Source: a virus
Lineage: Duplodnaviria > Caudoviricetes
Virus record (IMG/VR): IMGVR_UViG_2897081166_000001
Span: 1 to 64,000 of that record
Strand: one strand, 5' to 3'
DNA length: 64,000 bases
Shown: positions 29,325 through 63,233 of the stretch, one piece after another
Layout: every line of letters starts with the position of its first letter
Position numbering within the stretch: position 1 is the first letter of the stretch
Program-made: the position numbers and the translations under genes
The notes under the pieces: model-generated
Database searches by the model: none
Seen by the model: the letters and a program-made list of their open reading frames with translations, nothing else
Told to the model about the DNA's origin: nothing

Positions 29325-29540
29325 GTGACACCGAACGGAGCCGCAATCAGGTCCTTCCGAGAGAAGTGCGGACTGAGCCTGAGACGGCTCGCGCACCTCA
29401 TCGATCGCGACCCCGGCTATGTCTCCCGCATAGAGGCAGAGCAACGGGGAGCGGCGGAGGACACCCTTCGCCAAATCGCTGCGGTGCTGCAAGTGCCCGT
29501 TGCAGCCATCACAAGGGAGAAGCCCCGTGACCAGGAATGA
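29325..29540 (+). CDS. Cro-like HTH protein
   Basis: GLSLRRLAHLIDRDPGYVSRIE. Confidence 0.8.
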   Translation: MTPNGAAIRSFREKCGLSLRRLAHLIDRDPGYVSRIEAEQRGAAEDTLRQIAAVLQVPVAAITREKPRDQE

Positions 29541-40301: not shown

Positions 40302-41897
40302 ATGTACCGAAACGACGGCGACGCACTCACGGTCATGGACTGGTTCTGCGGCGCAGGCGGCTCCAGCCAGGGCGCCCACTCCGTCCCCGGCGTGCGCGTC
40401 ACCCGCGCCGCAAACCACTGGGCGAAGGCCATCGACTCCCACGAGGCGAACTTCCCCGAGGCCAGCCACTACCGCGGCGACATCCGCACCGCCCCCGTCT
40501 GGGACTGGCCCGTCACCGACATCTTCTGGGCCTCCCCGGAGTGCACCAACTGGTCCGTGGCGAAGGGCAAGCGCCGCAACTTCGACACCGCCATGCAGGG
40601 CAGCCTCCTCGACCTCCTCGCCGACCAGAACGAGGAGGAACCGGCCGACGCGGAGGAGGAGTCCCGGGCCCTGATGGAGGAAGTGCCGCTGTACCTCCGT
40701 GGCGTCCAGGAGCGCGGCGGGCTCGTCAAGGCCGGTGTCGTAGAGAACGTCACCGACGTCCGGGCCTGGGACCAGTGGGACCGGTGGATCGGCGAGCTCC
40801 ACAAGATGGGCTACCTCACCCGCATCATCGCCCTGAACTCGATGCACGCGAACCCGCGGTCCGTGCACGCCGCACCCCAGTCCCGCGACCGGCTCTACGT
40901 CGGCTACTGGCACAAGTCGCTGGGCCGCACCCCCGACTGGGACAAGTGGCTGCGCCCCCGCGCCTGGTGCTCCGGGTGCGACACCTGGGTGCAGGCCATG
41001 CAGGTCTTCAAGACCCCCGGCCGCGACATGGGCCGCTACCGCACCCAGTACGTCTACCGCTGCCCCTCCACCACCTGCCGCAACCAGATCGTCGAACCCG
41101 AAGCGCTTCCCGCCGCCGCCGCGATCGACTGGTCCATCCCCGGGCAGCGCATCGGCGACCGGGCCAAGCCCCTCGCCGACAAGACGCTCGCCCGCATCCA
41201 GGCCGGGCTCAGGAAGTTCTCCCAGCCCGTCCCGATGATGGTCCCGGCCGGCGGCACCTGGAGAGACTCGGCCGTCAGCGTCGGCGAACCCATGGGCGCC
41301 CGCACCACCCGGGAGAACGACGGCCTCATGGTCCCGCCGCTCCTCGTCCCCGTCGAGGGCCGCGACGGCAAGGAAGCCCGCTCCGTCAACGACCCGCTGC
41401 GCACCATGACCACCCGCAACGAGACCGGGCTCGCCTGGCTCCCGTTCATCGCCGAACTCCGCGGCGGCGGCTCCATCGCCCGGTCCGTCACCGACGCCCT
41501 CGCCACCGTCACCGCCTCCGGGAACCACCACGGGCTCGTCACCCCGGAGAACGTCACCTGGAACGACCTCCTCGTCCCCTACTACACCAACGGCACCGCC
41601 CGCACCGTCCGCGAACCCATCGGCGCCCTCTCCACCCGCGACCGGTACGCCCTTGTCCGAGGCGACGTCGACATCAACGACGTCCGCTTCCGAATGCTAG
41701 AGCCCCACGAGATCGGGCGAGCCATGAGCTTCGCCGACGACTACATCGTCCTCGGCTCCAAGCGCGACAAGGTCCGCCAGTACGGCAACGCCGTCACCCC
41801 CAACGCCGCCGAGATCATCCTCTGCGCCCTCGTCGAAGCCGTCACCGGCGACGAACTGGAGCGGTACGCCGAACCCCAGCTGGCCGCCGCCGCGTGA
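40302..41897 (+). CDS. DNA cytosine-5 methyltransferase 1
   Basis: FCGAGG, SPEC, ENV, PQSRDR, GNAVTP. Confidence 0.92.
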   Translation: MYRNDGDALTVMDWFCGAGGSSQGAHSVPGVRVTRAANHWAKAIDSHEANFPEASHYRGDIRTAPVWDWPVTDIFWASPECTNWSVAKGKRRNFDTAMQGSLLDLLADQNEEEPADAEEESRALMEEVPLYLRGVQERGGLVKAGVVENVTDVRAWDQWDRWIGELHKMGYLTRIIALNSMHANPRSVHAAPQSRDRLYVGYWHKSLGRTPDWDKWLRPRAWCSGCDTWVQAMQVFKTPGRDMGRYRTQYVYRCPSTTCRNQIVEPEALPAAAAIDWSIPGQRIGDRAKPLADKTLARIQAGLRKFSQPVPMMVPAGGTWRDSAVSVGEPMGARTTRENDGLMVPPLLVPVEGRDGKEARSVNDPLRTMTTRNETGLAWLPFIAELRGGGSIARSVTDALATVTASGNHHGLVTPENVTWNDLLVPYYTNGTARTVREPIGALSTRDRYALVRGDVDINDVRFRMLEPHEIGRAMSFADDYIVLGSKRDKVRQYGNAVTPNAAEIILCALVEAVTGDELERYAEPQLAAAA

Positions 41898-43093: not shown

Positions 43094-43700
43094 CGAAACC
43101 CCCATGAACTCCTGGCTCAACGAGCGCCGCACCCAGGCCCTCGCCGCATTCGACGACCAGATCCCGCTCCTCTACCGCCGCCGCATCTACCTCAACGACC
43201 ACGTCGCCCAGTGGGCCGACCAGACCGAGGAGGCACCCACCAGCCTGTTCCTCTGGGGGCCGTTGGGTGTCGGAAAGACCCACAACGCGTGGCAGGCCAC
43301 CCGCCGTTGGGTCGGCCAGCGATTCGCCGGCAACTACCGCGGCACCCCCATCGTCCAGACTTGGCGGTCCACCGCCCTGTTCGACGCCCTGCGGCCCGAC
43401 GACAACGGGGGCAGCCCCAAGCGGCTCATGAAGCAGCTCCAGACCGCGGACCTGCTGTACATCGACGACGTGGCCGCCGCCCGGGTCTCCCCGACCGGGT
43501 GGACCCAGGAACGGCTCTACGAAATCTTCGACGAGCGGTACATCAACCGGCTTCCGATCCTGATCACCAGCGATGTGAAGCCCAGCCAGATCAGCCACAT
43601 CGTGGGGGAGCGGGTCACCTCCCGGTCCGCGGAAATCTTCCGGGGCGGGGTCGTCCACCTCTCGGGTGCCGACCGGCGGCAGGGTGGTGAAGCCGCGTGA
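43074..43700 (+). CDS. DnaC/IstB-like AAA+ helicase loader
   Basis: GPLGVGKT, LLYIDDV, ERY...P..ITS, DRR. Confidence 0.88.
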   Translation: MTASSGDETPMNSWLNERRTQALAAFDDQIPLLYRRRIYLNDHVAQWADQTEEAPTSLFLWGPLGVGKTHNAWQATRRWVGQRFAGNYRGTPIVQTWRSTALFDALRPDDNGGSPKRLMKQLQTADLLYIDDVAAARVSPTGWTQERLYEIFDERYINRLPILITSDVKPSQISHIVGERVTSRSAEIFRGGVVHLSGADRRQGGEAA

Positions 43701-44098
43701 GCGCCCAGCCCACCCGCATCCAGCGTCGCCGCACGAAGGGCTGGCGTGCTCCCGAGGGGGCCGCCTACGTCGGACGTGGCACGGCGTTCGGGAACCCATG
43801 GGCCGTCGTGCAGACGACCAGCGGCACCGGATGGGCAGTGCAGTGGGCAGGACACGCCAACCAGCACCGCCCCCTCGGCCTCGCCAGTTTCGTCCCGGCG
43901 GACGACCAGCGCGACGCCCACACCCTCGCCGTCGAGCTGTACGAGATGTGGGTCCACGCCCACCCGCAGCTCCTCGAACGCGCCCGACGCGACCTCGCAG
44001 GCCGGGACCTCATGTGCTGGTGCGCCGACACCCTGCCCTGCCACATCGACCCCCTGCTCGCCATCGCCAACCAGCCACACCAGGAGACCAGCGCATGA
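43697..44098 (+). CDS. DUF4326-like protein
   Basis: YVGRGT.FGNP, LAGRDLMCWC, CH.D.L. Confidence 0.8.
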   Translation: MSAQPTRIQRRRTKGWRAPEGAAYVGRGTAFGNPWAVVQTTSGTGWAVQWAGHANQHRPLGLASFVPADDQRDAHTLAVELYEMWVHAHPQLLERARRDLAGRDLMCWCADTLPCHIDPLLAIANQPHQETSA

Positions 44099-45468
44099 CC
44101 ACCAGCATGTGGGACACCCCCATCGACGACCCGACCACCCTGCCCAGCACCCCCGCCGACTTCGAAGCCGAGAAGATCCTCGTCGCCACCGCCATGGCCC
44201 GCCCCACCACCGTCGACGAACTCGCCGCCACCGGCTTCGACCCCGCCGACATCGTCGACGACCGCTACCGGTGGGTGTGGTACGCCGTCGAAGAACTCGC
44301 CACCACCTTCCAGGCCGGCGAAATCCGCTACATCCCCATCGCCCGACAGCTTCAGGCATGGCGCGCCGACGGCCGCATCCTCAGCATCCCCTTCACCGAA
44401 GACCAGCTTCGCGACCTGTACAACCACGCCCAGCCCGGATCCGAGAGCTACTTCGCCGACCGCATCACCCGGCAAGCCATCGCGGCCCGCATGGTCGCCC
44501 ACGGCCACGCCTCCATCCTCCGCGGCAACTCCCCGGCCTTCGACCCCGACCAAGACGTCGCCGCGGCGCAGGCCGAACTCGACGGCGTCATCCGCGCCAC
44601 CACCGGCACCGAAACCACCCTCGTCGGCGACCTCCTCGCCGGCGTCTTCGAACGAGCCACCACCCCACCCACCAACGACGACAAGATCCCCACCGGGTTC
44701 ATCGACCTCGACGGGCTCCTCTGCGGCGGATGGGCCCCCGGCCAGATGGTTGTCGTCGGCGCCCGACCCGCCATGGGCAAAACCACCTTCGGCCTCGGCC
44801 TTGCAAGGGCCGCCGCCATCACCCACAACATCCCCACCCTGTTCGAATCCCTCGAAATGGGTGAAGCCGAACTCGGCAACAGCATCGTCTCCGCCGAAGC
44901 CCGCGTCGCCCTCCACCACATCAAGCAAGGCGTCGTCGGCGAAGACGCCGACGGCACCCGCCGCATGGCCACCCGAGCCCCGGCCATCAAAGCCGCCCCG
45001 CTCCACATCAGCGACGAAGCGAACCTGTCCATGGCCACCCTCCGCGGCCGGGTCCGCAACCTCGTCCGCACCGAAGGGCTCCGGCTCGTCGTCGTCGACT
45101 ACCTGCAGCTCATGCAGGCGCCCCGGGCCGAGTCCCGGCAGGTCGCCGTCTCGGAGATGTCCCGGCAGCTGAAGCTCCTCGCGAAGGAGTTCCAGATCAC
45201 AGTGATCGTCCTCGCCCAGCTCAACCGCGGACCCGAGCAGCGCACCGAGAAGAAGCCCATGGTGTCGGACCTGCGGGAGTCCGGGGCGATCGAGCAGGAC
45301 GCCGACATCGTGATCCTGCTCCACCGCGAAGACGCCTACGAGAAGGAATCCCCCCGGGCCGGTGAAGCCGACCTCATTGTGGGCAAGCACCGCGGGGGAC
45401 CCACGGCAACGATCACCACCGCGTTCCAGGGCCACTACGCCCGCTTCGTCGACATGGCCCAGACCTGA
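44095..45468 (+). CDS. dnaB: DnaB-like replicative helicase
   Basis: GARPAMGKT, SLEM, DYLQL, QLNR, DLRESGAIEQDAD. Confidence 0.95.
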   Translation: MTTSMWDTPIDDPTTLPSTPADFEAEKILVATAMARPTTVDELAATGFDPADIVDDRYRWVWYAVEELATTFQAGEIRYIPIARQLQAWRADGRILSIPFTEDQLRDLYNHAQPGSESYFADRITRQAIAARMVAHGHASILRGNSPAFDPDQDVAAAQAELDGVIRATTGTETTLVGDLLAGVFERATTPPTNDDKIPTGFIDLDGLLCGGWAPGQMVVVGARPAMGKTTFGLGLARAAAITHNIPTLFESLEMGEAELGNSIVSAEARVALHHIKQGVVGEDADGTRRMATRAPAIKAAPLHISDEANLSMATLRGRVRNLVRTEGLRLVVVDYLQLMQAPRAESRQVAVSEMSRQLKLLAKEFQITVIVLAQLNRGPEQRTEKKPMVSDLRESGAIEQDADIVILLHREDAYEKESPRAGEADLIVGKHRGGPTATITTAFQGHYARFVDMAQT

Positions 45469-46317
45469 TGTGGGAGCCGACCGTCGACGACATCGTCGCC
45501 GCCCGCGAACAAGGCGACCTCAAAGCCCTGTTACTCCTCGCCGCCGGCATCGCCCCCACTGCGCCCAAACAGCGCCAAGCCGAACCCGAGCAGCCCTGCT
45601 TCCACATCCGCCGCCCCGGCGCCTGGCCCTGCGGCACCGCCCCAACCGGCCCCACCCCGAAACCCTGCACCGACTGCCAGCCGCCAGAAAGGACCAGCAC
45701 ATGAGCCCCCGCCGCAAGCCCCCCGTCAACGTCCACTACCGCGCCGGCGGCTGGACGCTGCCCGACTACAGCGACCTCGCCGACTGCACCCCCAACTACC
45801 AGCGTGGCCTGAACGGCGAGCCGGCCTGCACCGGCACCGTCGTGTGGAAGGTCGTCGAGGAACAGGGGCTGATCCAGACGTTCCGCTTCTACTGCGACGC
45901 CGACCTTCCCGCCCAGGTCCGGCCGCAGGTCGACAACTGCCCCAACTGTCCGCGCCAGTGCGTCCAGCCAGCCGCCGAGTACCGCGGTGACGTCGAGGTC
46001 AGCCACCTGTACCGCTGCCCGGCCTGTGGCGTGACGTGGTCGACGAACCGGGACCTGCGGGCGTATGGGGAGGCGGCGTGACGGCCAACCCGCGGGGGAC
46101 CGGTCGTCGGTTGGGGCGCGGGCGCGACCCGGCAGTACCCCCTTCGCGGGACAAAAACCGGCCTCTCGCAGCCGAACAGGCTTCCGGTGCCCCGGAGTCC
46201 CAGCGGGGCGGAGAACGCCAGGGAGGCACCCAGCGGGCCGATCCGACCCCAGAACCCATCCCCGGGCAGACCGAACTGCCCCTCACCTACCGACAAGTGA
46301 CCCTTTGGAGCCTCTGA
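45468..46317 (+). CDS. Three small coupled hypothetical genes (45468-45704, 45701-46081, 46078-46317)
   Basis: Translational coupling; CxxC motifs. Confidence 0.6.
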
Positions 46318-47279
46318 TGGATCTACTTCGAAACGCCGTGGATTTGTTCTCCGGCCCGCGGGGCTGGACGGAGGGCATGCGCGCTCTCGGTATCAGCGAC
46401 ATCGGCCTGGAGGTCTGCCGGTGGGCGTGCGCAACCGCCATGGCGGCGGGGCACGCGACCGTGCAGTGCGACGTCACCACCGCTGACCCAGCCCTGTACG
46501 CCGACATGCCGGGCCTGATCGCGTCTCCGCCGTGCCGCCCGTGGTCCCCGGGCGGCCTCCGCCAGGGCCTGGCGGACCGGGAGTTGGTGGCCGCGGCGAT
46601 CGACGACCTGGCCGCCGGCCGCGACCCCCGGGCGACTCTCCGCGCCCTGTGCGCGAACCCCGAGAGCATGCTCGCCGCCGAGCCGATGCGGTGGCTGTAC
46701 CTGCTGCGCCCGGAGTGGGTGTGCATGGAGCAGGTGCCCGCGGTCCTCCCGTTGTGGCAGCAGTACGCCCGGCATCTGGCCGGATGGGGGTACAGCGTGT
46801 GGACCGGGGTGGTGGACGCGGGCCGGCATGGGGTGCCGCAGACGCGGCGCCGGGCGGTGTTCATCGCGTCCCGGGTGCGGGACGTGGGCCCCCCGGTGGC
46901 CACGCACGCCGCGGCCCCGGCCATGCGTGACGTGGTCCCCGGTGTCGCCGCGGACACGGTGCTGGTGTCCCGCCGGGACTCGGTGGCCCGCCTTGCCGCA
47001 CACGGGCCGCGCCGCAACCGGGCCGGGGCCGAGCCCGCCCCGACGGTCACCGGTGAGGTGTGGCGGTGGAAGTGGGACGACCACGGTGCCGTCCGCCCCG
47101 TCACCGCCTCCGAGGCCGGGCAGTTGCAGACGTTCCCCGCCGACTACCCGTGGCAGGGCCCGAAAACCCGGGTCGCCCGGCAGGTCGGGGACGCCGTGCC
47201 GCCGGCTCTCGCCACCGCGGTCGTCGCTGTGGCCACCGGGGCTACCGCCCCCGCGCAGCCTCACCTCACCGCCGCATGA
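46317..47279 (+). CDS. DNA cytosine-5 methyltransferase 2
   Basis: DLFSGPRG, SPPC, EQV, PQTRRR, GDAVPP. Confidence 0.88.
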   Translation: MDLLRNAVDLFSGPRGWTEGMRALGISDIGLEVCRWACATAMAAGHATVQCDVTTADPALYADMPGLIASPPCRPWSPGGLRQGLADRELVAAAIDDLAAGRDPRATLRALCANPESMLAAEPMRWLYLLRPEWVCMEQVPAVLPLWQQYARHLAGWGYSVWTGVVDAGRHGVPQTRRRAVFIASRVRDVGPPVATHAAAPAMRDVVPGVAADTVLVSRRDSVARLAAHGPRRNRAGAEPAPTVTGEVWRWKWDDHGAVRPVTASEAGQLQTFPADYPWQGPKTRVARQVGDAVPPALATAVVAVATGATAPAQPHLTAA

Positions 47280-51765: not shown

Positions 51766-52173
51766 TCAGCGGGGGAGCGCCTCGTCGAGGTACTCCTGCA
51801 CGGGCCCGAACAGCCCATACGGCACGTACTCCGGGATGTCGCCGTGTCCGATCCACGCCACCGCGGCGATCTCCTCCGCGTCCCCGACGATCGCGTCACC
51901 GGAGATCAGCTCGCACGCCACATACGTCATCGGCACCCCCGTCTGCGGGTGCACCCGGTCACCGAGGACCCGGACGGCCTTCACCTCCAGGCCCACCTCC
52001 TCCGCCGTCTCCCGCACCGCCGCCTGCTCCGGGGACTCCCCGGCCTCGATGCCGCCGCCGGGGAACGCCCACAGCAGCCTCCCCTCCCGCTGCTGCCGCC
52101 GGATCATCAACACCTTGCCGCCGTCGACGATGATCGCCGTGGAGACGGGGGGCTGCACACTCTGCTCGGTCAC
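51766..52173 (-). CDS. Nudix hydrolase
   Basis: Canonical box GGIEAGESPEQAAVRETAEEVG. Confidence 0.92.
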   Translation of the reverse strand: MTEQSVQPPVSTAIIVDGGKVLMIRRQQREGRLLWAFPGGGIEAGESPEQAAVRETAEEVGLEVKAVRVLGDRVHPQTGVPMTYVACELISGDAIVGDAEEIAAVAWIGHGDIPEYVPYGLFGPVQEYLDEALPR

Positions 52174-52808
52174 GCTGCCTCCAGGGCACTCAGGATCGGC
52201 GGGAAGATGTTCTCGGCGGGGATGAAACGGGTCAGGTTGGCGAGCGGCACCCAGGCGACGTCCATGTTCTCGACCGCGTCCAGGTTGGTGGCCTCGCCGG
52301 CGAGATAGTCGCAGAGCACGTAGCTGGCCAGCACTCCGGTTTTTGGGTGGACCCGGGTGCCGAGTTCCTCGCGGACTGCGACGTGCACCCCGGTCTCCGC
52401 GTGGGTTTCCTGCACCGCCACCGCGGCGGCGGCGGCGCCCGGCTTGCACATCCCGGCCGGAAACTGCCAGGTGAGCGCATCGTCGCCGCGCCGGCACACC
52501 AGGAGCACCTCGGTTCCGCGCAGCACCACGGCGATAGCGACCCGCAACGCCTGAGCCTCAGCCGGGGCAGATTCCTCGGGCGGGCGGGACAGAAGGGTGA
52601 AACGTCTACGCACGTGCTCGTTGGCCCTCTCGTAGGTGGTGTCGAGGGCCTGCTGCATCTCGGTGCGCGGCACGATCTCCGGGTTCCTGTGCCAGCCGGC
52701 GACCGTGCGAACCGCGACCCCGAGCTTCGCGGCGAAGCCCTCGTTCGTCATGCGGAGCGCGGCCTGCAAGGCGCAGGCGGTGCGGCCGGTCCACGTGGTG
52801 ACGTTCAC
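52170..52808 (-). CDS. XRE HTH-Nudix fusion
   Basis: WTGRTACALQAALRMTNEGFAAKLGVAVRTVAGW; degenerate box GMCKPG...VQETHAETG. Confidence 0.85.
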   Translation of the reverse strand: MNVTTWTGRTACALQAALRMTNEGFAAKLGVAVRTVAGWHRNPEIVPRTEMQQALDTTYERANEHVRRRFTLLSRPPEESAPAEAQALRVAIAVVLRGTEVLLVCRRGDDALTWQFPAGMCKPGAAAAAVAVQETHAETGVHVAVREELGTRVHPKTGVLASYVLCDYLAGEATNLDAVENMDVAWVPLANLTRFIPAENIFPPILSALEAA

Positions 52809-52972
52809 TATCCGGCTCCCCGGGTCGTGGCGCTGCGGTTCTGCATCACTGCTGCACTGCTACTGCACTAGGGGCCGATCCGGTGCACTGCCACCGCACT
52901 GGCGGTTCATGTTCCGGTAAGCCGGCCGCCGGTTGACTTGAGGGCATGACAGGGACTCCTCCCGATCGGAGC

Positions 52973-53200
52973 TCAGGCCTTTCGCTGCCGGTCGATCTCG
53001 TCGGCGATCTTCCGCGCCCACTCCCGGCTGTAGGGGGTGTGCTCCGCGATCGACGTCAACGGCACGCCGGCGGCGCGCGCGTCGGCGACGAGCTCGTCGA
53101 GCTGGCGGCGCGTCTTCTCGTGCGCCGAGCTGGCTCGGTCAAGCCGTCGCAGCCACGGCTGCCGTTCCTTCTCGTCGAGCCTCGCGGGCGTACCTGTCAT
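52973..53200 (-). CDS. Small coiled-coil plus HTH regulator (paralog B), divergent from the transfer operon
   Basis: DARAAGVPLTSIAEHTPYSREWARKI. Confidence 0.8.
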   Translation of the reverse strand: MTGTPARLDEKERQPWLRRLDRASSAHEKTRRQLDELVADARAAGVPLTSIAEHTPYSREWARKIADEIDRQRKA

Positions 53201-53223
53201 GTCCGGAATGGTCTCACGTTCTA

Positions 53224-53324
53224 CCGCCAACTGAATAGGCGCTCGCCGTCGAACTCTTAGTGCCAACTTAGTTGCACTCCCTGCTCTCGCTGTGCCACTA
53301 TCGAAGTGCCAAGAAAGTTGGCAG
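53224..53324. promoter_or_regulatory. Operator repeats in the divergent promoter
   Basis: GCCAACT; TGCCAACTTAGTTGCA; TGCCAAGAAAGTTGGCA. Confidence 0.65.
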
Positions 53325-53350
53325 TCACTCTCCGGAGGGAAGACCCCGCC

Positions 53351-54325
53351 ATGCCCAAGCTCGCCAGCGCGAACCGCAGCACCAACGACTACCCGATGTC
53401 GCAGGCGGACGTCGACGCCCACCGGGAGTCGACCTACTACCGCCGCCCGGCCCAGGTCTCCCAGGACTCTCCGATTCCGCCCGCGGATCCGGCTGCTCGC
53501 CGCCGGTTCATTGCGCAGCGGCAGTGGTGACCGGCCGTGTTCGGGTCTGCTGACCTGTGCCCCGCTGACCGTGACCTTCGTCTCCGCCTGGACCGCATCA
53601 AGCGGGACGCGGAGGACGCCGAGGCCGCCCGGTTGAAGCGCGAGGCCGCCGAGAAGGCGCGCACCACCCACTGACCGCCGCTCCTGCCCGGTGTCACCCC
53701 CCGTCCCGGGCGGGAGCGGCTTCCCACCCCGCTTTTTCACCCCACCACCCAAACCGAAGGGCACTCCCATGTCTCCGTTCGTTTCCTCCGTGACCAGCCT
53801 CCTCTCCGCCGACCTCGCCACGGTGTCCGCCGAGATCCACAACCTGCGGGCGGCGCTCCTCACCTCCGACGTGCAGGTCACGTGGGAGGAGGCGGAGGGC
53901 CTGACGCCGGGGGAGATCGTCACCCGGTACGTGGCGGCCCGCGGTGACCACGGCACCCAGCACTGGCTGCGGGGCCTGGCCGCCGAGCACGACGCCGGGC
54001 AGCCGTTCGGGCCGCGGCTCGTGGACGAGCTCGACCAGCTCGACGGGCCCACCGAGATGGCCGCCGCCTGACCCCCGGCCTGCCCTGTCGCCCCCAACCC
54101 AGGGTTGGTGGCGGCGGAGTGGCCCGGATTCACCCGGACCCGAACTCCAGGAGAGACACCATGGCCCGCAAGATCACCGAGTCCTTCATTCCCTGTGCCC
54201 CCCGCCCCCGGTTCACCGTCGAGGGCGCCCACCCGTGGGACCACCACTCCACCCGGGAGGACGCCGAGAAGCAGGCCGCCGAACTCGACGCAAAGGACGC
54301 CGCCGAGGCGGAGAGGCAGCGTTGA
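53351..54325 (+). CDS. Small leader genes of the transfer operon (53351-53530, 53769-54071, 54161-54325)
   Basis: RBS motifs and codon bias. Confidence 0.55.
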
Positions 54326-54705
54326 TGCCCGCCGTCACGATCGTGTCGTTCGGGTTCCTGCACGGTGACCCGCCGCCCGCACACCTGGTCGTTGACCTGA
54401 GGCAGCACTTCCGGGACCCGCACGTGTCCCCTGAGCTGCGGTACATGACCGCCCTGGACGAGCCGGTACAGCAGGCGGTGCTCGGCACCCCCGGCATCAC
54501 CGGGCTCGTCGAGGCGGTCGCCGCGGCGGTGGACGCGTTCACCGCGGGCCCCAGCGCCGGGCCGGTGACTGTGGCCGATGGGTGTGCGGGCGGCCGACAC
54601 AGGGCCCCCGTTTTCGCCCAGGCCCTTGCCGACCAGCTCACCGCCGCCGGGCACACCGTCACCGTTCAGCACCGCGACCTGCACCGACCCGTCGTCAACC
54701 GATAG
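54325..54705 (+). CDS. RapZ C-terminal-domain protein
   Basis: IVSFGFLHG, DLR.HFRDP, GCAGGRHR, HRDL. Confidence 0.85.
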   Translation: MPAVTIVSFGFLHGDPPPAHLVVDLRQHFRDPHVSPELRYMTALDEPVQQAVLGTPGITGLVEAVAAAVDAFTAGPSAGPVTVADGCAGGRHRAPVFAQALADQLTAAGHTVTVQHRDLHRPVVNR

Positions 54706-54719
54706 AGGAGAACGAACCC

Positions 54720-54923
54720 ATGAGCGACCAGCCCACCGCGCAGACCGTCGGCACCCACGCCCTGGCCAAGGCCGTTGAGTACGCCGACAAGGCCCACGCC
54801 CACACCGTCAGCGCCTACGGGGAGCGGGCGTTCAACGAGGCGAAGGTCGCCGAGAACATCCGCTTCGCCCAGCTCTACGCCGACATCGCCAAGGCCGCCG
54901 GCCTCCTCGCGAACAACACCTGA
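54720..54923 (+). CDS. Small hypothetical protein
   Basis: GAGGAG RBS; MSDQPTAQ. Confidence 0.6.
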   Translation: MSDQPTAQTVGTHALAKAVEYADKAHAHTVSAYGERAFNEAKVAENIRFAQLYADIAKAAGLLANNT

Positions 54924-54943
54924 CCAGGAAGGACACCGCCCCC

Positions 54944-56299
54944 GTGACGACCAGCCCGCCCCAGGTGAACGGCCACCGCAGCCGGATCCCCGTGATCACG
55001 GACTGGCAGACGCTCCTAGCGCCTGCCGAGGAGCCGGCCGTCACCACCACCCCCGAACCCGACCCGGTCGCCCCTGCGGTCGACCTCGTGGCCCAGGCGA
55101 AGGCTGACGCGATCCGCACCAAGGCCTACGCCGACGCCGAAGAGCAGCGCATCCGCGCCGAGGCCGAGGCCAAGGCCGCCGAGCTCAAGGCTGCCGAGGA
55201 AGCCCGGAAGCTGAAGCTCGCCAACGACAAAGCCGCAGCCCGCGCCCTTGAGGAGCAGGCCGCGCGGGACGCCCGGATCGCCGAGTCCGAGCGGAAGCGG
55301 GCCGAGGCCGAGCGCGGCCAGCAGGAAGACGAGCGCGCCCACCAGGAGCAGCAGCAGACCGCCGCCGCTGCCGAGGCCGACGTTGCCAAGGCGGCCAAGA
55401 CGTGGCGCAGGTACGCGATCTTCTTCTACACCGTCTGCGCGGTCGTCGCCCTGCCGGTCCAGATCGCCGCGTTCTGGGACCGCGACGCACCCTGGCTCGT
55501 CATCGCCCCGCTCATGCTCGAAGGCGCCGCCCTGGTCGTCACCAAGGGTGCCGCTGCAGCCGTCGCCGCCGGGCGCCCGCACTGGCACTACCGCACCGTC
55601 GCCTGGGCGTTCGCGTTCATCGCCGCCGGGATCAACCTCAAGCACGGGCTCGACGCTTTCGACCCCGCCACCGCGATCGGCACCGCGTTCGCCTCACTCG
55701 CCGGCCCCGGAGTGTGGGACCTCCACGAGCACGGTCGGATCCGCCGACGTGATGGTGTGCCCACCCGGCGGGAGCGGCGCGCGGCCAAGAAGACGGCCGA
55801 GCGGGAAGCCGCCGAGCAGACCCAGGCGCGCCTGGTCGAAGCCGAGCGGCAGGCCCACCTGGAGAACGCCGCACGGAACGCCGCCGAACGCCTGGACGCC
55901 GACCGCAAGCAGATGTTCCCGAGAGTCCACGAGCACGCCCTGAAGCTCGCTGCGGACCTCGGCGAGACGGCCATCACCCCGGCCATTTGGAAGCAGGCGA
56001 AGCTCGACGTCGACGGTGCGCTGCCGGGGGAGTCCGACGAGATCCTCCGCATGCGGAACACGGCTGCGGCGAAGGTCGAAGCGGCCCGCCTCAACAAGCC
56101 CGTCAGCACCCTCAGCAAGACCACGAACGCGCAGCGTGCCGCCCATCTCCCCCCTGCCTCCACCAAGCCCCGCCCGAAGCCGATTCCGCCCCGCCGCACC
56201 CGCGGCGACAGCACCCCGTTTCACCCCGCCGCGAAGCGTCTCGCAGCCGACACCGCACGCCGCTCCATGACTGTCCGAATCAACGCCGAGGAGAACTGA
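54944..56299 (+). CDS. DUF2637/Spd-like membrane spread protein
   Basis: Coiled coil, about four TM helices, basic tail; upstream of tra genes. Confidence 0.65.
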   Translation: MTTSPPQVNGHRSRIPVITDWQTLLAPAEEPAVTTTPEPDPVAPAVDLVAQAKADAIRTKAYADAEEQRIRAEAEAKAAELKAAEEARKLKLANDKAAARALEEQAARDARIAESERKRAEAERGQQEDERAHQEQQQTAAAAEADVAKAAKTWRRYAIFFYTVCAVVALPVQIAAFWDRDAPWLVIAPLMLEGAALVVTKGAAAAVAAGRPHWHYRTVAWAFAFIAAGINLKHGLDAFDPATAIGTAFASLAGPGVWDLHEHGRIRRRDGVPTRRERRAAKKTAEREAAEQTQARLVEAERQAHLENAARNAAERLDADRKQMFPRVHEHALKLAADLGETAITPAIWKQAKLDVDGALPGESDEILRMRNTAAAKVEAARLNKPVSTLSKTTNAQRAAHLPPASTKPRPKPIPPRRTRGDSTPFHPAAKRLAADTARRSMTVRINAEEN

Positions 56300-56883
56300 T
56301 GAACACCCCCTCCGAGCAGGTCCGCAACTTCGCCCAGCATCAGGCAGACCAGCCCTTCACTGCCCCGCCCCGACCCCGCACCGCCCCCTCGAACGACGTC
56401 CACCCGGGCGGCGTGAACAACTCGACGAACCGCACCGGAGGCGCGTTCGCCCCGTCCCTCGGCCTCTCCGTCAACAAGACCACCGTCGTCAACGGCGCCT
56501 CCGGCGGAACCCGTGGCCCGGGACGTGGTGCCGGCGGGAAGGTCCCCGGGTCCGACTTCATGTCCAACGAGGACATCCGCGCGTTCTGCGAGTACCTGCG
56601 GAAGGACTCCCGGAACCGGGCCACCGAGCGGGCCATGGACGCCGACCACCTCGAAGCCGTCCTCCGCACCATCCCCGACGCCAGCGGCAACCTCCACGGA
56701 TCCCGCGCCCGCGCCCGACGGGTGTCCCGCTGGCTGAGGAAGGTTGCCGCCGCCGAGAAGGCCATCCAGAAGTACTCGGCGATGGTGTACGGCACGTTCG
56801 AGCGGGAGTACGAGTCCGACCTGCGGAAGGTCGGCAAGGGCCGCCACCAGCCCCCGCGCGCCACCAAGTTCGGCTGGCGCTAA
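56299..56883 (+). CDS. TraA-like plasmid transfer protein
   Basis: F.S.EDIRAFCE..R, SRARARRVSR.L pattern; immediately upstream of traB. Confidence 0.65.
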   Translation: MNTPSEQVRNFAQHQADQPFTAPPRPRTAPSNDVHPGGVNNSTNRTGGAFAPSLGLSVNKTTVVNGASGGTRGPGRGAGGKVPGSDFMSNEDIRAFCEYLRKDSRNRATERAMDADHLEAVLRTIPDASGNLHGSRARARRVSRWLRKVAAAEKAIQKYSAMVYGTFEREYESDLRKVGKGRHQPPRATKFGWR

Positions 56884-56915
56884 CCCCCCGACCACCACCT
56901 CCCCTGGAGCCCACT

Positions 56916-57140
56916 GTGAAGCAGACCTGGACCGCCACCACGATCGCCGAAGCCATCAACATCCTCGACGCCGCGACGAAGCAGCTCGAAGCGCAGGCCC
57001 TGGCCCTGGAACCCGGCGGCTTCCACGAGCGCAAGGAAGCCGAACGCCAGACCCCCATCCACCTCGCCATCGAGTTCGACCTCACCGACCTCATCCGGCG
57101 GATCACCGACAAGCACCAGGCCCGAGCCCTTAACGGCTGA
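56916..57140 (+). CDS. Small hypothetical protein
   Basis: ORF between the traA-like gene and traB. Confidence 0.55.
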   Translation: MKQTWTATTIAEAINILDAATKQLEAQALALEPGGFHERKEAERQTPIHLAIEFDLTDLIRRITDKHQARALNG

Positions 57141-57168
57141 CCACCCCACCTGATCAGGAGCTATCCCC

Positions 57169-59172
57169 GTGGCTGACAGCCAGAAGGCCGACCTGTGGAA
57201 GGCCATCAAGCACCCCCGCATGAGGCCCTGGCTGACAGTCGCCGCCGAGGTCCCCGCCACCTTCGCCTCCCACCACTATTGGGGCGACTCCGTACCCGCC
57301 GCGATCGGCCTCACCGTCGCCGCAGGAGTACTCACCGCCGCAACATGGTGGGCAGGCGAGGGGACACGGCCCGGCCGGCGTATCCACGCCACCCTGTCCA
57401 CCGGCCTCGGCACCTCCTACCTCGTCGTCGGCACCGCCGTCGGCCCGTTCGACCCGGCGCTCGCCTCCACCCTCGTCATCGGCGGCGCCGTCGCCGCCGG
57501 GTCGTGGAACATCCGCCAAGCCCTCCGCGTCAACGTCGACCCGCAGAAGGAAGGCGGCAACGCCGAGACCGGTGTCCTCGTCAAGGCCATTGGTGACGCC
57601 AAGGTCGCCCTCCGCGGCAAGCCGAAGGTCGAACCCAACAAGGTCACCGTGCCCCTCCAACTGGCCGCCGGGCAGGTTACCTCCGACGACCTCGGCAACC
57701 GCATCAAGCACATCGCCGGCGAACTCGGTGTCTCCCCGACCAGCATCCGCGTCATCCCCGACCCCGACGACGCCGCCCGCGCCACCCTCGTCGTCGTCCC
57801 CAAGGACGAACTCAAAACCAGCACCATCTGGCCCGGCCCGTCCAACCCCGGCGGCAGCATCACCGACCCGATCGCCATCGGGATCTACGAGGACGGCGAA
57901 GTGGCGGTGCTGTGGTTCCCCTTCGACTCCCAGTCCAGGCGGAACGCCACGCACTTCCTGGCCGCCGGGATGAACGGCTCCGCCAAGTCCACCGGCATCA
58001 GCGTCGCCATGGCGGAAGTGCTGACCAAGCCCGACGCCATCGTCTGGGCGGTCGACCCCTCCAAGGGGCAGCAGACGTTCGCCCCGTTCCTGCCGTACCT
58101 CGACTGGGTCGAGATGACCGAAGCCGGGGGTAACGAGATGATTGACGCCCTGCCGCAGGTCATCACCGCCCGCGCGAACGAGCTCGGCCGCCACGGCTTC
58201 AAGAACTGGACTCCGCAGGCCCACGATCAGCTCGGCATGCCGTACATGATCGTGTGGATCGAGGAAGCGGCCAAGTTCTTCCGCAACGGCACCGAAATGG
58301 AAGGCCTCGTCATGGAGGCCCGGTCCGCCGGGATCAGCGTCATCATCAGCCTCCAACGCCCCTCCGCCACCAGCATGCCCACCGACGTCCGCGAGCAGCT
58401 CGGCGGCGTCCTCTGCTTCGGCGTCAAAGGCTCCACCACCGCCGACATGGCCCTCCCCGACGACGTCCGCGACGCCGGCGCCCGCCCCGAAGCCTGGGAA
58501 AACCGCAAACCCGGCTACGCCTACCTCGTCGCCCCCGGCGTCGACGAAGACCGCTACGCCACCCCCCTGCGCACCTACCTCATCGACGACGACCAGATCA
58601 CCGGGGCCCTCGCCATCCTGCCCCGCACCCCCATCGACCCCGTCACCGCCGCAGCAGCCGGTGACGCCTACGCCAACCGCACCCGATACGACGCTGACAC
58701 CCCGCTGACCAGCGGTGACAGCCCACGACAGGAGACCGTCACCATGACCAAGGACGACGCCCAGGCCGCCGAGAAGGCGCTACTGGAGAAGCAAGTCGAC
58801 CGCGAGATCGACGCCATGGTCGGCGACGACCCCGACAACGACGGGTTCGTACCCGACGTCGACGCCGACCAGGAGATCGCCCCGGTGAGCGAAGTGTGGT
58901 CGTTCGGGCAGGCCCAAGCCCCCGTCGAGGAGAAAACGCCGGAGGCCGGCATGGACGCGCTGATGGTGATGCTCGCCGAGTTCCGGGCGGAAGAGCGGGA
59001 GTTCATCGGCCCGAAAGACTTCGGCCCGTTCGGGAAGGGGCAGCGCATCGGAAGGTCCCGTTCCTGGGTGTCAATGGCTCTCGGGGACCTGTCAGATGCC
59101 GGGATTCACCTCCAGGAGACGGAGCAGGCGGGGGTCTATCGGCTGCTGTACCCGGAGCTGGCGGAGGTCTAG
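57169..59172 (+). CDS. traB: TraB-like FtsK/SpoIIIE conjugal DNA translocase
   Basis: N-terminal TM helices; Walker A GMNGSAKS; Walker B IVWIEEA; ARSAGI...SLQRP; C-terminal winged helix. Confidence 0.85.
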   Translation: MADSQKADLWKAIKHPRMRPWLTVAAEVPATFASHHYWGDSVPAAIGLTVAAGVLTAATWWAGEGTRPGRRIHATLSTGLGTSYLVVGTAVGPFDPALASTLVIGGAVAAGSWNIRQALRVNVDPQKEGGNAETGVLVKAIGDAKVALRGKPKVEPNKVTVPLQLAAGQVTSDDLGNRIKHIAGELGVSPTSIRVIPDPDDAARATLVVVPKDELKTSTIWPGPSNPGGSITDPIAIGIYEDGEVAVLWFPFDSQSRRNATHFLAAGMNGSAKSTGISVAMAEVLTKPDAIVWAVDPSKGQQTFAPFLPYLDWVEMTEAGGNEMIDALPQVITARANELGRHGFKNWTPQAHDQLGMPYMIVWIEEAAKFFRNGTEMEGLVMEARSAGISVIISLQRPSATSMPTDVREQLGGVLCFGVKGSTTADMALPDDVRDAGARPEAWENRKPGYAYLVAPGVDEDRYATPLRTYLIDDDQITGALAILPRTPIDPVTAAAAGDAYANRTRYDADTPLTSGDSPRQETVTMTKDDAQAAEKALLEKQVDREIDAMVGDDPDNDGFVPDVDADQEIAPVSEVWSFGQAQAPVEEKTPEAGMDALMVMLAEFRAEEREFIGPKDFGPFGKGQRIGRSRSWVSMALGDLSDAGIHLQETEQAGVYRLLYPELAEV

Positions 59173-59178
59173 GGGGCG

Positions 59179-59350
59179 GGGGTGTCAGCGCTGACACCCC
59201 TCCTGACCTGCGGTGACATCAGATTCACACCAGATTTTCTTGATCAGCTGTCAAGACGGGTGTGAATCAGGGGTGTCACCGCCCCTGGCGGCTCGATCTC
59301 TATAGGTCATGCGCGTGCGCGCGCGTGACTGACGGCGGACTGACATCACC
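59179..59350. repeat. clt-like repeat/palindrome cluster
   Basis: GGGGTGTCAGCGCTGACACCCC; GATTCACACC...GGTGTGAATC; repeated TGACA/TGTCA. Confidence 0.55.
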
Positions 59351-59379
59351 GGATTTCCAACCAACCCAAAAGCTAGGAA

Positions 59380-60219
59380 ATGGTTCAAATGGTGCAACTC
59401 TTTGGTCTGTCGTCGGGCGTGCCGCGATGCGTTGCCGCGACGAGCGAGAGCCCCTGCCGTGAAGCTGCCGCCATCGCCACTCCGGTGGCGCTGTGCGAGA
59501 CACACCGGCTGAGGATCGCGCTCGACCTCACCCCAGAGGTGCTTGGCCGCGCCTTGGTACGCCGAGCCACTCCTCCCGCCCCAGGCAGGCCGGCACCGCG
59601 GAGCATGGCGAGCATTGCCACCTCAGCCCAGCCGGCAGAGTTCATCGGAGGCATAGCGGCCGGGCGGCATGCACCCGTTGTCTACTTTCTGCTGAACGGC
59701 AGTCGAGTAAAGATCGGCTACACCCGGTCCTTGGTCACGCGCCTTCGAGCGCTTGCCCTTGGAGAATCGGCGGTTGTCCTGCTTCTCAGCGGCGGTCGAC
59801 AACTTGAGAGCGCCCTGCATGCAGAGTTCGCGGCGACCAGGGTCAAGGGCACCGAGTGGTTCGAGATCACCGCGCCGCTCCTGCGCTACATCGGCGGCAG
59901 GCTTGCGCGCCCCGCCGTCGCCATCCAGCCGGACCTGGACCTGGATCGGGACGAGCCCCGTGAGCCGCAGGACGTACCGGCGCGGCCCCGCATGTCCGAA
60001 GCGCGCCAGGCGTTGCTGAGCCTCGTGAAGCAGGCCAAGGCAGAGGGGTGGGACCACATAGGGCCCCGTCACGTCTGGGGGCAGCATCGGCACACCCTGC
60101 GCCGGAGCCGACCGTGGGTGAGCGCTGAACTTGCACGACTAGCTGATGAAGGCGTTCTTTGCCGCACAGACGAAGCAGGCGTCTACACCTTCCGCGACGA
60201 CGATTTGGAGACAGCATGA
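59380..60219 (+). CDS. GIY-YIG/T5orf172-like nuclease fused to a TraB-like winged helix
   Basis: VVYF...VKIGYT..L..RL..L...E..LH..F...R..GTEWF; C-terminal RSRPWVSAELARLADEG...EAGVY. Confidence 0.7.
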   Translation: MVQMVQLFGLSSGVPRCVAATSESPCREAAAIATPVALCETHRLRIALDLTPEVLGRALVRRATPPAPGRPAPRSMASIATSAQPAEFIGGIAAGRHAPVVYFLLNGSRVKIGYTRSLVTRLRALALGESAVVLLLSGGRQLESALHAEFAATRVKGTEWFEITAPLLRYIGGRLARPAVAIQPDLDLDRDEPREPQDVPARPRMSEARQALLSLVKQAKAEGWDHIGPRHVWGQHRHTLRRSRPWVSAELARLADEGVLCRTDEAGVYTFRDDDLETA

Positions 60220-60647
60220 AAAGCCCCGAAACGGACGGAGGTCGGGCCAAGGTACTTGCTGCAGCACTCCGCACCTGGACCACCGTCGACAACGACCCCG
60301 AACCCCCTGTCGCACGCCTGGAAATCCGCTACCCACCCCACTGGGCGTTCACCTCCACCAACCCCATCACCGCAAGGCAACAGAAGCGGCTCCTCGCGTT
60401 CCTCCGTGACGACCTCGCCGAGAACCGGCCCGGATACTCCACCCCTGAACGCGCCGCCGCGATCATCCACGGGCTCATCACCGAACACGCCGCCGCCGGC
60501 CGCACCCGCATCACCACCGCGGACCTCGCCGAAGCCGCACCCCGGATCGGCCGGTCCCGTACCTGGATCGCCGCCCACGTCACCGACCTCATCGACGGCG
60601 GTGTGCTTCGCGAGACAAGACGCCCCGACACCTTCCGCATCAACTAG
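60216..60647 (+). CDS. Protein with TraB-like winged helix
   Basis: RIGRSRTWIAAHVTDLIDGGVLRET. Confidence 0.65.
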   Translation: MKSPETDGGRAKVLAAALRTWTTVDNDPEPPVARLEIRYPPHWAFTSTNPITARQQKRLLAFLRDDLAENRPGYSTPERAAAIIHGLITEHAAAGRTRITTADLAEAAPRIGRSRTWIAAHVTDLIDGGVLRETRRPDTFRIN

Positions 60648-60656
60648 GAGACCACC

Positions 60657-61139
60657 GTGCAGCTGCCCGAGCAGCCCGTTGCCGGGCAGCCCGATCCCAC
60701 CGACCGCGCCGAAGTCCGCAAGCTCGCCCACGCCGTCGAGACCGTCCTCCTGGAGGAAATGGCCACCTACCACCGCGACACCACCCCGCTCCCCGCGGTG
60801 GGTGCTGCACCGCCTGTGCCGCAGCCAGGTCAGCCCCCGATGTCGCAGTGGGCGACCGACGCCAGCGGGGTCCTCAAGGCTGTGTCCGTGGCGTCCCTGC
60901 CGATCGGCGGGGCCCTGTGGATCGTCGGCCAGGTCGACCCGCTGACCTTGGGCATCATCCTCGGCTCGCCGGCCGCTGTTGCCTTGGCTGTGGCCCGACT
61001 CGTCGCGAAGGTCAAGGACGCCAACCAGGCTGTACCGCAGCCGGTCACCAACCACTTCCACGGCACCGTCCACCACGACGAGCGCATCGTCACCAGCACC
61101 ACCCGCGGCCTCATCGCGAACAACCGGAACCGAAACTGA
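60657..61139 (+). CDS. Two-TM membrane protein (Spd-like)
   Basis: PPVPQPG.PPMSQWATD followed by two hydrophobic helices. Confidence 0.65.
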   Translation: MQLPEQPVAGQPDPTDRAEVRKLAHAVETVLLEEMATYHRDTTPLPAVGAAPPVPQPGQPPMSQWATDASGVLKAVSVASLPIGGALWIVGQVDPLTLGIILGSPAAVALAVARLVAKVKDANQAVPQPVTNHFHGTVHHDERIVTSTTRGLIANNRNRN

Positions 61140-62520: not shown

Positions 62521-62817
62521 CTAGTCGTGCGGGTAGTCGTTGTGCTCGAGGTAGGGGGCGGCGAGGAGCCGCAGCTGGTACTCGGCAGTCCGGCCAGCCG
62601 CCCCGCCCGCGCCCAGGTGCGGGATCACGGTGTCCTCCAGCAGTGTCAGGTGCACCTCCGCGGTGGCAACGGAGAACCGGGCGTGCTTCGCGGCGTCCTC
62701 GGGGTCGACACCGAACCGTTCGGGATCCTGGGTCACTGTGCCGCTCGCGAACCGGGCCTTCTCCAACTCCTCGGCGAACCGGGTGCGGAGGAAGGCCACC
62801 AGCCGGTCGTTGATCAT
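62521..62817 (-). CDS. Short DUF6221-like protein
   Basis: LVAFLRTRFAEE...LRLLAAPY..H.DY. Confidence 0.65.
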   Translation of the reverse strand: MINDRLVAFLRTRFAEELEKARFASGTVTQDPERFGVDPEDAAKHARFSVATAEVHLTLLEDTVIPHLGAGGAAGRTAEYQLRLLAAPYLEHNDYPHD

Positions 62818-63233
62818 GGCGTCCACTCCGGGAGGTAGTCCTGGTGATCGGCGTACACGGCTGCTTCGGCCAGCAGTACACGTCGCAGAACCTGATACTC
62901 GACCTTGGCTTCTTGGTAGCCAGTGGTGTCCGCGTTCCGCATCGCCTGGTCCATCCGATCTGCCGCGCTCTCGTACAGGTCGACGAGCTGACGCTTCGCT
63001 TTCACCTCTCTCAGCGCGCGTGCGGGATCTTGAAGCGCAACGTGCTCCATCTCGGCAGTGTTGAGCCCGCATTCCTCGGTCAGATGGATGGTTCCCAGGT
63101 CGATGAACGCTCCGTCGGCTGTGGTGCTGAACCTCCATTCGGGGGTCGCCCATGAAGCCGCAGAAGGTGCCGTAGCCGTTCGCTCGTCATCGTCCAGTCG
63201 CGCAGTTACGAACGATGGCAAGAGGCCGCTCAT
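62814..63233 (-). CDS. DUF6221-like protein
   Basis: FVTARLDDDE...DPARALREVKAKR...YADHQDY.PEW. Confidence 0.75.
   Translation of the reverse strand: MSGLLPSFVTARLDDDERTATAPSAASWATPEWRFSTTADGAFIDLGTIHLTEECGLNTAEMEHVALQDPARALREVKAKRQLVDLYESAADRMDQAMRNADTTGYQEAKVEYQVLRRVLLAEAAVYADHQDYLPEWTP

Follow-up and report, generated by a model that had tools for sequence, protein, structure and literature searches.

The subject of this work is a 64,000-nucleotide stretch of viral DNA (hereafter the window), bases 1-64000 of the 81,292-base IMG/VR virus record IMGVR_UViG_2897081166_000001 (class 'linear', CheckV completeness 96%), which carries at 51766-61139 a module of TraB type for the transfer of double-stranded DNA (dsDNA). 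With a probability of about 0.68 for the whole of this reading, the window represents most of a temperate Streptomyces siphovirus of approximately 82 kb, captured as a circle (attP form), the dsDNA transfer module is an integral part of the phage, and the phage has two routes of spread. Such dual spread, by virions and by transfer of DNA between hyphae, appears most likely because the TraA-TraB module is intact, its cognate repeat array is conserved, the site lies inside the attP circle and traB is under purifying selection. The genes expected of a temperate siphovirus are all present (terminase, portal, capsid, tail tube, tape measure, lysis genes, integrase and attP). An earlier note on this DNA, made from its letters alone, had placed tail, lysis, integrase and DnaB genes and a transfer operon on one element; all of these were named in the same record and the coordinates of the module agree exactly.

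The TraA-TraB module and its repeat array

Genes were called by a codon-position GC score and named by Pfam, PHROGs and NCBIfam. The module is composed of two Nudix genes and a divergent plus-strand operon (RapZ-C, SpdB2-like, TraA and TraB), and all its open reading frames (ORFs) are intact. Its features, including those with a helix-turn-helix (HTH) domain, are the following:

51766-52173, minus strand: Nudix hydrolase (Pfam NUDIX, 1.4e-22)
52170-52808, minus strand: Nudix protein with an N-terminal extension (Pfam NUDIX, 1.8e-12, residues 89-194)
52973-53230, minus strand: small divergent gene, possible HTH regulator (PHROG 686 'HTH DNA binding protein', 6.7e-4)
53231-53768, no strand: divergent control region (repeats and inspection of the sequence)
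53769-54071, plus strand: first operon gene, conserved left flank of the exchangeable segment
54322-54705, plus strand: stand-alone RapZ C-terminal domain protein (Pfam PapZ_C, 2e-26; phrog_18111, 6e-49)
54944-56299, plus strand: SpdB2-like membrane protein, 451 aa (DUF2637, 21.6 bits, cut-off 22.8)
56299-56883, plus strand: TraA, plasmid transfer protein (NCBIfam NF041213, 107.4 bits, cut-off 80)
57169-59172, plus strand: TraB, FtsK-like dsDNA conjugative translocase with a C-terminal winged helix (NF041214)
58695-59278, no strand: candidate clt with five TGACACCC/GGGTGTCA copies (clustering and conservation)
59380-60219, plus strand: T5orf172/MUG113 (GIY-YIG-like) protein with a TraB-type winged-helix C-terminus (Pfam MUG113, 1.2e-8; T5orf172, 2.3e-6)
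60159-60647, plus strand: third ORF with the winged-helix domain, 162 aa (TraB C-terminus by tblastn at 60441-60641, E=2e-6)
60657-61139, plus strand: small membrane protein (phrog_19266, 7e-57), conserved right flank of the exchangeable segment

TraB scores above the equivalog cut-off of the NCBIfam family plasmid_TraB (NF041214, 830 bits against 800, residues 9-666), and PHROG FtsK families match it at 1.3e-13. It is 73% identical to TraB of the Streptomyces plasmids pCQ3 and pCQ4, 36% identical to that of pSN22 over 99% of its length and 37% identical to the homologue in pWTY27. The Walker B motif MIVWIEE and the recognition helix GRSRSW of the winged helix-turn-helix (wHTH) domain are conserved out to pSN22, and throughout the aligned homologues the presumed recognition helix reads GRSR(S/A)W. 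The gene is under purifying selection, the ratio of nonsynonymous to synonymous substitution rates (dN/dS) being 0.15-0.37 in eight pairs. Megablast of the module against the phage collection gave no match, and tblastn with TraB found there only distant FtsK proteins of Bacillus-type phages at 30% identity or less; a TraB of this type is thus missing from all the cultured phages deposited in it.

The 3' end of traB carries a repeat cluster which is a candidate for the cognate clt docking site of TraB. The 8-mer TGACACCC occurs seven times in the 81 kb record, and five of the seven copies fall within 584 bp at this place. For the 7-mer TGACACC (16 copies), five copies within 650 bp were reached by 2 of 20,000 random placements; in the whole window it is not over-represented (14 copies, 10.2 expected), the signal being its clustering. 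A palindrome, GGGGTGTCAGC/GCTGACACCCC, is found at 59179-59200, immediately 3' of the traB stop codon. Arrays of the same motif are present 3' of traB in nine of nine IMG/VR relatives and nine of nine Streptomyces genome loci (18/18), with TraB identities of 59-93% and a spacing that is often 11 or 22 bp. In pCQ3 copies of the motif are found at both ends of traB, and several more distant loci have an additional array just 5' of the gene. The 7-mer is the DC1 repeat of the pWTY27 clt, which according to a passage in PMC3583192 was footprinted with the TraB homologue of that plasmid. Scanning of pSN22 showed the TGACACC motif to be absent.

Two further copies of the TraB winged-helix domain are found directly downstream, in the products of 59380-60219 and 60159-60647, and the RSRxW helix is common to all three proteins. 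The C-terminus of the first matches the C-terminal part of NF041214 at 3e-14 and the TraB C-terminus by tblastn at E=3e-7; its homologues at loci L010 and L107 are 67% identical and both loci have short TGACACC arrays. The second has no Pfam family. Both paralogues probably bind the same repeats, perhaps in regulation, competition or homing.

TraA, 61% identical to TraA of pCQ3, is present in all nine IMG/VR loci. The Spd-like protein of the earlier note has some support from its architecture and position, the charged and repetitive N-terminus and the hydrophobic segments at residues 156-208 fitting SpdB2 as described in a passage of PMC4447253, and the proteins at the same position in the plasmids pFP3 and NZ_CP109440 being annotated DUF2637; its own DUF2637 score is nevertheless below the cut-off. 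The RapZ_C protein is present in six of the nine IMG/VR TraB loci, and its homologues are common in both plasmids and phages (148 Streptomyces plasmid records and 48 phage records), so that it is not specific to conjugation. The small membrane protein closing the module has hydrophobic segments at residues 71-119, and homologues are found 3' of the translocase in relatives G006, G008 and G009 and in pFP3.

On the left side of the module, the Nudix hydrolase 51766-52173 is 93-95% identical at loci L009 and L010 and is kept beside an alternative translocase in G008. It is a candidate Pif-like factor of conjugal exclusion, by analogy with the exclusion role of Nudix proteins cited (Possoz 2003) in a passage of PMC9513070. 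The N-terminal 85 aa of the second Nudix protein may be an HTH (weak HTH_23 match, E=0.063), and HTH-Nudix fusions are mentioned on a Streptomyces integrative and conjugative element in the same source. A divergent repressor had been claimed in the earlier note; there are indeed weak HTH matches here (PHROG 686 and HTH_23), but no Pfam family was found for the product of 52973-53230 at E<=0.01. The first operon gene is 86-94% identical at loci L007 and L009 and 88% identical in G008, which has a different translocase.

The control region has two palindromic operator-like sites (about 53260-53277 and about 53307-53324) and, just 5' of the first operon gene, a hairpin with a 15-bp stem (53677-53720). 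The loop of the hairpin holds a copy of GGTGTCA, the clt word (position 53690), and the leader of the operon may therefore be a binding site for TraB or the wHTH paralogues. A scan of 51.5-61.8 kb for sigma-70-type promoters gave no site, the sigma-70 consensus being uninformative for Streptomyces.

Position of the module in the phage genome

The site of integration is defined by two features:

26859-28019, minus strand: tyrosine integrase (Phage_int_SAM_3, 25 bits, cut-off 22.6; catalytic domain, 26.1 bits, cut-off 27.1)
26695-26781, minus strand: attP core, 3' fragment of an acyl-CoA dehydrogenase gene (homology to DNA abutting related integrases)

Profile support for the integrase is modest, its catalytic domain being under the cut-off. 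Beside it, a stretch of 53-64 bp (about 26713-26776) matches, at 91-92% identity, the DNA next to related integrases in three genomes of Streptomyces, where it forms the 3' end of acyl-CoA dehydrogenase (ACAD) genes of full length (Pfam, 1.8e-52 and 9.3e-53). Only the last 28 ACAD codons are present in the record, encoding the peptide TKIYTIFEGTSEIQRLVIARAISGRHIR followed by a stop. From this homology, attP is predicted to carry a replacement 3' end for its target gene, acyl-CoA dehydrogenase. The related integrases abutting ACAD genes are 52-57% identical, 57% being the best value among 401 Streptomyces genomes, and the attP core is thus set by homology alone and not by an attL/attR pair of the same phage. 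An att site of tRNA type was considered and rejected, as no tRNA genes are present in the window or beside the related integrases and the att is in a protein-coding gene.

The record aligns collinearly with the 84,744-base provirus G003, nucleotide identity being 67-95% in patches, but it is circularly permuted: its bases 31234-81292 correspond to 5040-53496 of G003 and its bases 210-25655 to 54686-82721. The five closest relatives include four records classed as provirus (G001-G004) and one as linear (G005), and in four of the five the integrase match is at the extreme end of the record, G004 having no match. In the present record the integrase is internal and the right end of the prophage is joined to the left end. 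Both contig ends are inside the tape-measure gene, about 1 kb of which is absent at the contig break as judged from G003, and no host DNA is present. The circular permutation together with the intact attP places the module inside the excisable circle, about 25 kb inside the attP boundary and with the integrase about 29 kb from traB. The module is therefore an integral part of the phage genome, situated between the early and replication genes and the packaging genes.

This position bears on the possibility that an independent actinomycete integrative and conjugative element (AICE) or small conjugative plasmid has inserted in the prophage and hitchhikes with it. The combination of TraA, TraB and Nudix proteins is typical of AICEs and small plasmids, according to a passage in PMC9513070, and the occurrence of the same cassette in unrelated backbones (9/99 genes in common with pCQ3) shows horizontal exchange. 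We nevertheless consider a hitchhiker very improbable. As the earlier note had also reported, there is no second integrase, att site, RepSA or RepAM gene around the module; no credible att-like direct repeats flank it, and RepSA, RepAM and Prim-Pol were found nowhere in the record, the searches for RepSA and RepAM being made without positive control. These absences of flanking repeats, second integrase and AICE-type Rep argue against a nested AICE, as do the retention of the slot and its flanking genes in relatives with a different translocase and the depth of the module within the attP-bounded circle. A small serine resolvase does exist about 32 kb away. The label of a phage-AICE hybrid given in the earlier note is not retained, since AICE replication gene, separate integrase and att pair are all missing and the module fills a conserved slot of a phage lineage. 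Likewise no ParA (CbiA/ParA) or ParB (ParB_N) was found in the record, in searches whose positive controls matched.

Exchange of the translocase and copies in other backbones

A search with the portal gave 76 IMG/VR loci, of which the 37 on contigs of at least 30 kb were searched across the whole records. An FtsK-type protein is present in 11 of the 14 records with a portal identity of at least 73% (G014 being counted among the 11 on a weak 75-residue match alone) and in one (G037) of the 23 with 33-44%. The exceptions among the close 14 are G007, G011 and the 72%-complete G016, in which the module is absent or undetected. As to recurrence at this position in related prophages, which the earlier note had raised, the TraB type described here occurs as a full-length protein in G003 and G004 and is divided between two overlapping frames in G005. 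G006, G008 and G009 lack it and have another translocase in its slot, with the flanks kept. The left flank (Nudix pair and first operon gene) is retained in G008 and the membrane protein of the right flank in all three.

In these three the slot holds a g68-like membrane protein (about 450 aa) and, after it, an FtsK/SpoIIIE protein of 737, 737 and 698 aa in G006, G008 and G009, respectively (Pfam E-values 5e-10, 1e-9 and 4e-4). An array of ACCCTGCC is present at the 3' end of this alternative pump, with 8 of the 10 copies at the locus in G006 (L103, 9300-10100) and 7 of 9 in G008 (L102, 8700-9600) falling within 800-900 bp. By its arrangement, the 737 aa pump with ACCCTGCC represents a second putative pump-clt pair. 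For the third allele, in G009 (L104), no clear array of repeats was seen at the 3' end.

The hosts of the cassette are Streptomyces, and copies are found in chromosomes and on stand-alone contigs of 51-100 kb. A third backbone is represented by loci L108, L113 and L115, whose TraB proteins are 82%, 64% and 59% identical, respectively, and where genes for an SPP1-type portal and a small terminase subunit (Terminase_7) are located 6-8 kb downstream. Four circular Streptomyces plasmids of 88-93 kb have a portal 63-66% identical to the one described here, and in one of them (NZ_CP109440) the layout is the same: a GntR gene is divergent, and there are DUF2637 and two large proteins without a name. 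A wider proposal, which is possible but which we regard as tentative and as likelier to fail than to hold, is that hyphal DNA transfer is a core and diversifying trait of an integrating lineage of Streptomyces phages of about 80 kb, in which a fixed translocase slot would swap cassettes of pump and clt (TGACACCC, ACCCTGCC and the third pump of G009), and that the cassette has moved among at least three unrelated backbones, always to the junction before the packaging genes.

A number of observations weigh against a working transfer module. The Walker A motif of TraB (window 57967-57990, residues 267-274) reads GMNGSAKS, with Ala replacing the canonical Gly. Among the profiles that the earlier note had named, the TraA family is confirmed, but Pfam FtsK_SpoIIIE gave no match to TraB at E<=0.01 and DUF2637 stays under its cut-off, which leaves the SpdB2-like assignment, like that of the repressor, below threshold. 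The candidate clt has five copies as compared to 7-12 in most relatives, and the gene for the nuclease-wHTH protein occupies the site of the remaining array in the relatives. Unlike in pSN22, pCQ4 and pFP3, no GntR repressor of the TraR/Kor type is present beside the operon. In G005 (G005:C1:32361-34354) TraB is split in two overlapping frames covering residues 1-231 and 215-667, and at L110 (a complete chromosome, 10001-11990) it is truncated at 511 aa and followed by IS4/DDE transposases and host-like genes; these decayed copies imply that the module is dispensable. From public sequencing data, the best run carries 31% of the sampled words, and no RNA run is among those listed.

Some of these points, namely the Ala in Walker A, the shortened clt array interrupted by a nuclease-type gene, the decayed copies in G005 and L110 and the module missing or undetected in G007, G011 and G016, would also fit a decaying or repurposed remnant which no longer moves DNA and serves, for example, in the exclusion of incoming plasmids or phages. 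Such a remnant appears improbable, given the intact ORFs, the low dN/dS of traB and the conservation of the repeat arrays across TraB proteins of 59-93% identity. The Ala variant itself recurs in full-length homologues with intact arrays: GMNGSAKS is found in 7 of 17 aligned TraB homologues and spans several sub-lineages, the rest having GMNGSGKS and pSN22 GMTGSGKT.

Proposed mechanism of transfer

The docking of a TraB hexamer on clt and the aid of Spd proteins in spreading are an established model for pSVH1, pSN22 and pWTY27 (passages in PMC4447253 and PMC3583192). By analogy with these three plasmids, TraB of the phage would form a membrane hexamer and, by the winged helix at its C-terminus, dock on the TGACACCC repeats (clt) located at and just after the 3' end of traB on the circular phage DNA. 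It would then pump this circle, double-stranded and unprocessed, into an adjacent hypha or compartment. Spreading across the cross-walls would be aided by TraA and by the SpdB2-like and small membrane proteins, and the Nudix proteins may act like Pif of pSAM2 and block redundant transfer into cells already carrying the element. In the recipient the circle would integrate by means of its own integrase. DNA binding, transfer, spreading, exclusion and regulation by the module are functions that we infer.

The same proteins could serve mainly for intramycelial spreading, in which case TraB and the Spd-like protein would move phage DNA across septal cross-walls and enlarge the lysogenised or productive zone, in place of conjugation between donor and recipient. 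It is true that TraB and Spd proteins drive the intramycelial spreading of plasmids and that, along with TraA, SpdB2-like and small membrane proteins are encoded in the operon. However, plasmid TraB does both jobs, the intramycelial and intermycelial roles are not exclusive, and the plasmid-phage pZL12 is cited as conjugally transferred in a passage of PMC3583192. Nothing in the sequence separates a role in spreading from one in conjugation, and we regard a restriction mainly to spreading as unlikely.

Related plasmids and phages

The closest arrangements are found in pCQ3 (NC_013449) and pCQ4 (NC_019307), circular plasmids of 85 kb from Streptomyces sp. W9 and W75, respectively. Despite the 73% and 61% identity of TraB and TraA, any match at all is limited to 9 of 99 genes of pCQ3, and the phage backbone is different. 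In pCQ4 traA-traB are upstream of annotated terminase and portal genes, like here before the packaging genes, and in pCQ3 they are upstream of the major capsid and other structural genes, with unnamed genes between. Annotated on pCQ3 are also a tyrosine integrase and capsid, tail and lysis genes. ParA and ParB are present in pCQ3 and a divergent GntR regulator in both plasmids, and neither is found at the module described here. In the literature searched there was no description of the biology of pCQ3 and pCQ4, which are mentioned in gene tables only (PMC4924298). The plasmid pFP3 (NC_023067) carries, in this order, GntR, DUF2637, two small genes, FtsK/TraB and a g72 homologue, in addition to capsid, portal and terminase.

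Plasmid-phages in which both routes of spread are combined have been reported. In passages of PMC4170104 and PMC3583192, pZL12/phiZL12 and pFP4 are cited as conjugating episomally and forming infective particles, and through these citing papers pZL12 was traced to Zhong et al. 2010 and pFP4 to Chen et al. 2012. The likeness of pZL12 to the present phage is drawn from its description in the citing papers. What defines the type, complete tailed-phage structural and lysis genes and a TraB-type locus on one replicon, is found here as well. As described there, however, pZL12 and pFP4 are autonomous plasmids with ParAB or RepA, while ParA, ParB and a plasmid Rep are missing from the present record, whose relatives are proviruses in the integrated state. 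The genomes of pFP3, pSLE1 and PhiNon1, too, are those of tailed phages with a TraB-type locus for transfer. Other passages describe pSLE1 as syntenic with pZL12 and carrying ParAB and two integrases (PMC4487206), pZL12 as a singleton extrachromosomal actinophage (PMC7157519) and PhiNon1 as integrating at a tRNA gene (PMC5431353).

Among plasmids without phage genes, pSN22 (NC_001425; traR-traA-traB-spd) has the same TraA-TraB pair in the same order and shares the Walker B motif and the GR-x-RSW helix, but it is an 11 kb rolling-circle plasmid with Rep and a GntR repressor and without a TGACACC array. In pWTY27 (NC_013667), a 14 kb theta plasmid, the clt spans the 3' end of its translocase gene and the spacer that follows (according to a passage in PMC3583192), an arrangement also seen here. 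With the AICEs (pSAM2) and the TraB-SpdB2 model of pSVH1, as outlined in passages of PMC3218068, PMC9513070 and PMC4447253, the phage shares integrase, TraB-type pump and Nudix (Pif-like) gene, and the mechanism proposed is likewise dsDNA transfer with spreading. An AICE is defined in PMC3218068, in the passage concerned, by Int, Rep (RepSA, RepAM or Prim-Pol) and Tra in a small element with att sites at its borders; the present element differs in having no such Rep, a size of about 82 kb and a full virion encoded.

The principle of a conjugating phage has thus been in print since 2010-2012, and the novelty implied by the earlier note falls with pZL12 and pFP4, such phages being described since 2010. 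The present record is set apart as an integrating form that lacks partition genes and as a member of an uncultured lineage (best cultured portal 39%). What is new is the integrating form without ParA and ParB, the conserved translocase slot with swapped alleles of pump and repeat, and the presence of the same cassette in three unrelated backbones. No prior description of integrated TraB prophages was found beyond the plasmid-phage papers, subscription journals being outside the coverage.

Gene order of the record

The features of the phage other than integrase and attP are given below in the order of the record:

0.2-7.6 kb: gene block in the order tape-measure C-terminal part, Dit, Gp37-like protein, fibre with GDPD (glycerophosphodiester phosphodiesterase) domain
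169-2643, plus strand: tape-measure C-terminal part (Peptidase_M23 and SLT domains, Pfam)
2643-3581: Dit
3595-4767: Gp37-like protein
7.8-11.6 kb, minus strand: block of small genes
12.7-14.9 kb: endolysin and holins
12723-13661: Amidase_2, lysis (Pfam)
14552-14857: holin
14.9-17.0 kb: second GDPD fibre-like gene
17-26 kb: lower-GC stretch, probable cargo, with PIN protein, small serine resolvase, ATP-dependent ligase, HTH and GntR regulators
19557-20180: small serine resolvase, about 32 kb from the module
21178-22047: ATP-dependent DNA ligase
25665-26282: GntR/UTRA regulator, in the low-GC stretch along with an HTH_31 regulator
29.5-49.7 kb: early genes (clamp-like protein, DUF3799 exonuclease, exonuclease, WhiB, two C5 methyltransferases, DnaC-like loader, DnaB)
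43104-43700: DnaC-like loader (Bac_DnaA/IstB, 1e-8)
44095-45468, plus strand: DnaB helicase, forming the phage replication module with the loader (DnaB_C, 3e-84)
51.8-61.1 kb: transfer module
67.3-70.3 kb, minus strand: portal and large terminase, beyond the window in the same record
after portal and terminase, beyond the window: capsid, connector, tail tube, tape-measure N-terminal part
78862-81291: tape-measure N-terminal part, which ends the record

The assignment of the portal follows from its place in the genome and from annotated portals to which it is homologous (38-39% identity), and by portal the nearest cultured phage is 39% identical. The two GDPD fibre-like paralogues (5795-7570 and 14854-16971) share about 68% nucleotide identity across about 770 bases, the second being outside the tail operon and 3' of the lysis cassette. 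Two DUF6221 paralogues are on the minus strand, one in the gene block between tail and lysis genes (9856-10380) and one between transfer module and packaging genes (62521-62826); elsewhere DUF6221 genes are found 3' of the portal in the plasmid NZ_CP109440 and near the cassette at L115.

The GC content of the window is about 0.69. From 17000 to 29500, around the integrase, it is 0.64-0.66 as compared to about 0.70 elsewhere, and this stretch is probably exchangeable cargo. Its ligase and HTH regulator have homologues in pCQ3. In the early region two genes for C5 cytosine DNA methyltransferases are present (40302-41897 and 46305-47279), with no obvious partner restriction gene.

Implications

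The practical yield of this analysis is a defined candidate pair of TraB pump and TGACACCC clt, a conserved and allelically variable slot in an uncultured prophage lineage of about 80 kb and a defined attP that corresponds to an acyl-CoA dehydrogenase gene. A working module would give the temperate Streptomyces phages of the lineage a second route of spread which is independent of the virion. This would bear on the movement of prophages through mycelia and on receptor-based phage resistance, whose bypass the earlier note had supposed. Host DNA, with antibiotic gene clusters among it, might be mobilised as well: a pump acting on clt while the prophage is integrated could carry along the flanking host chromosome in an Hfr-like manner.

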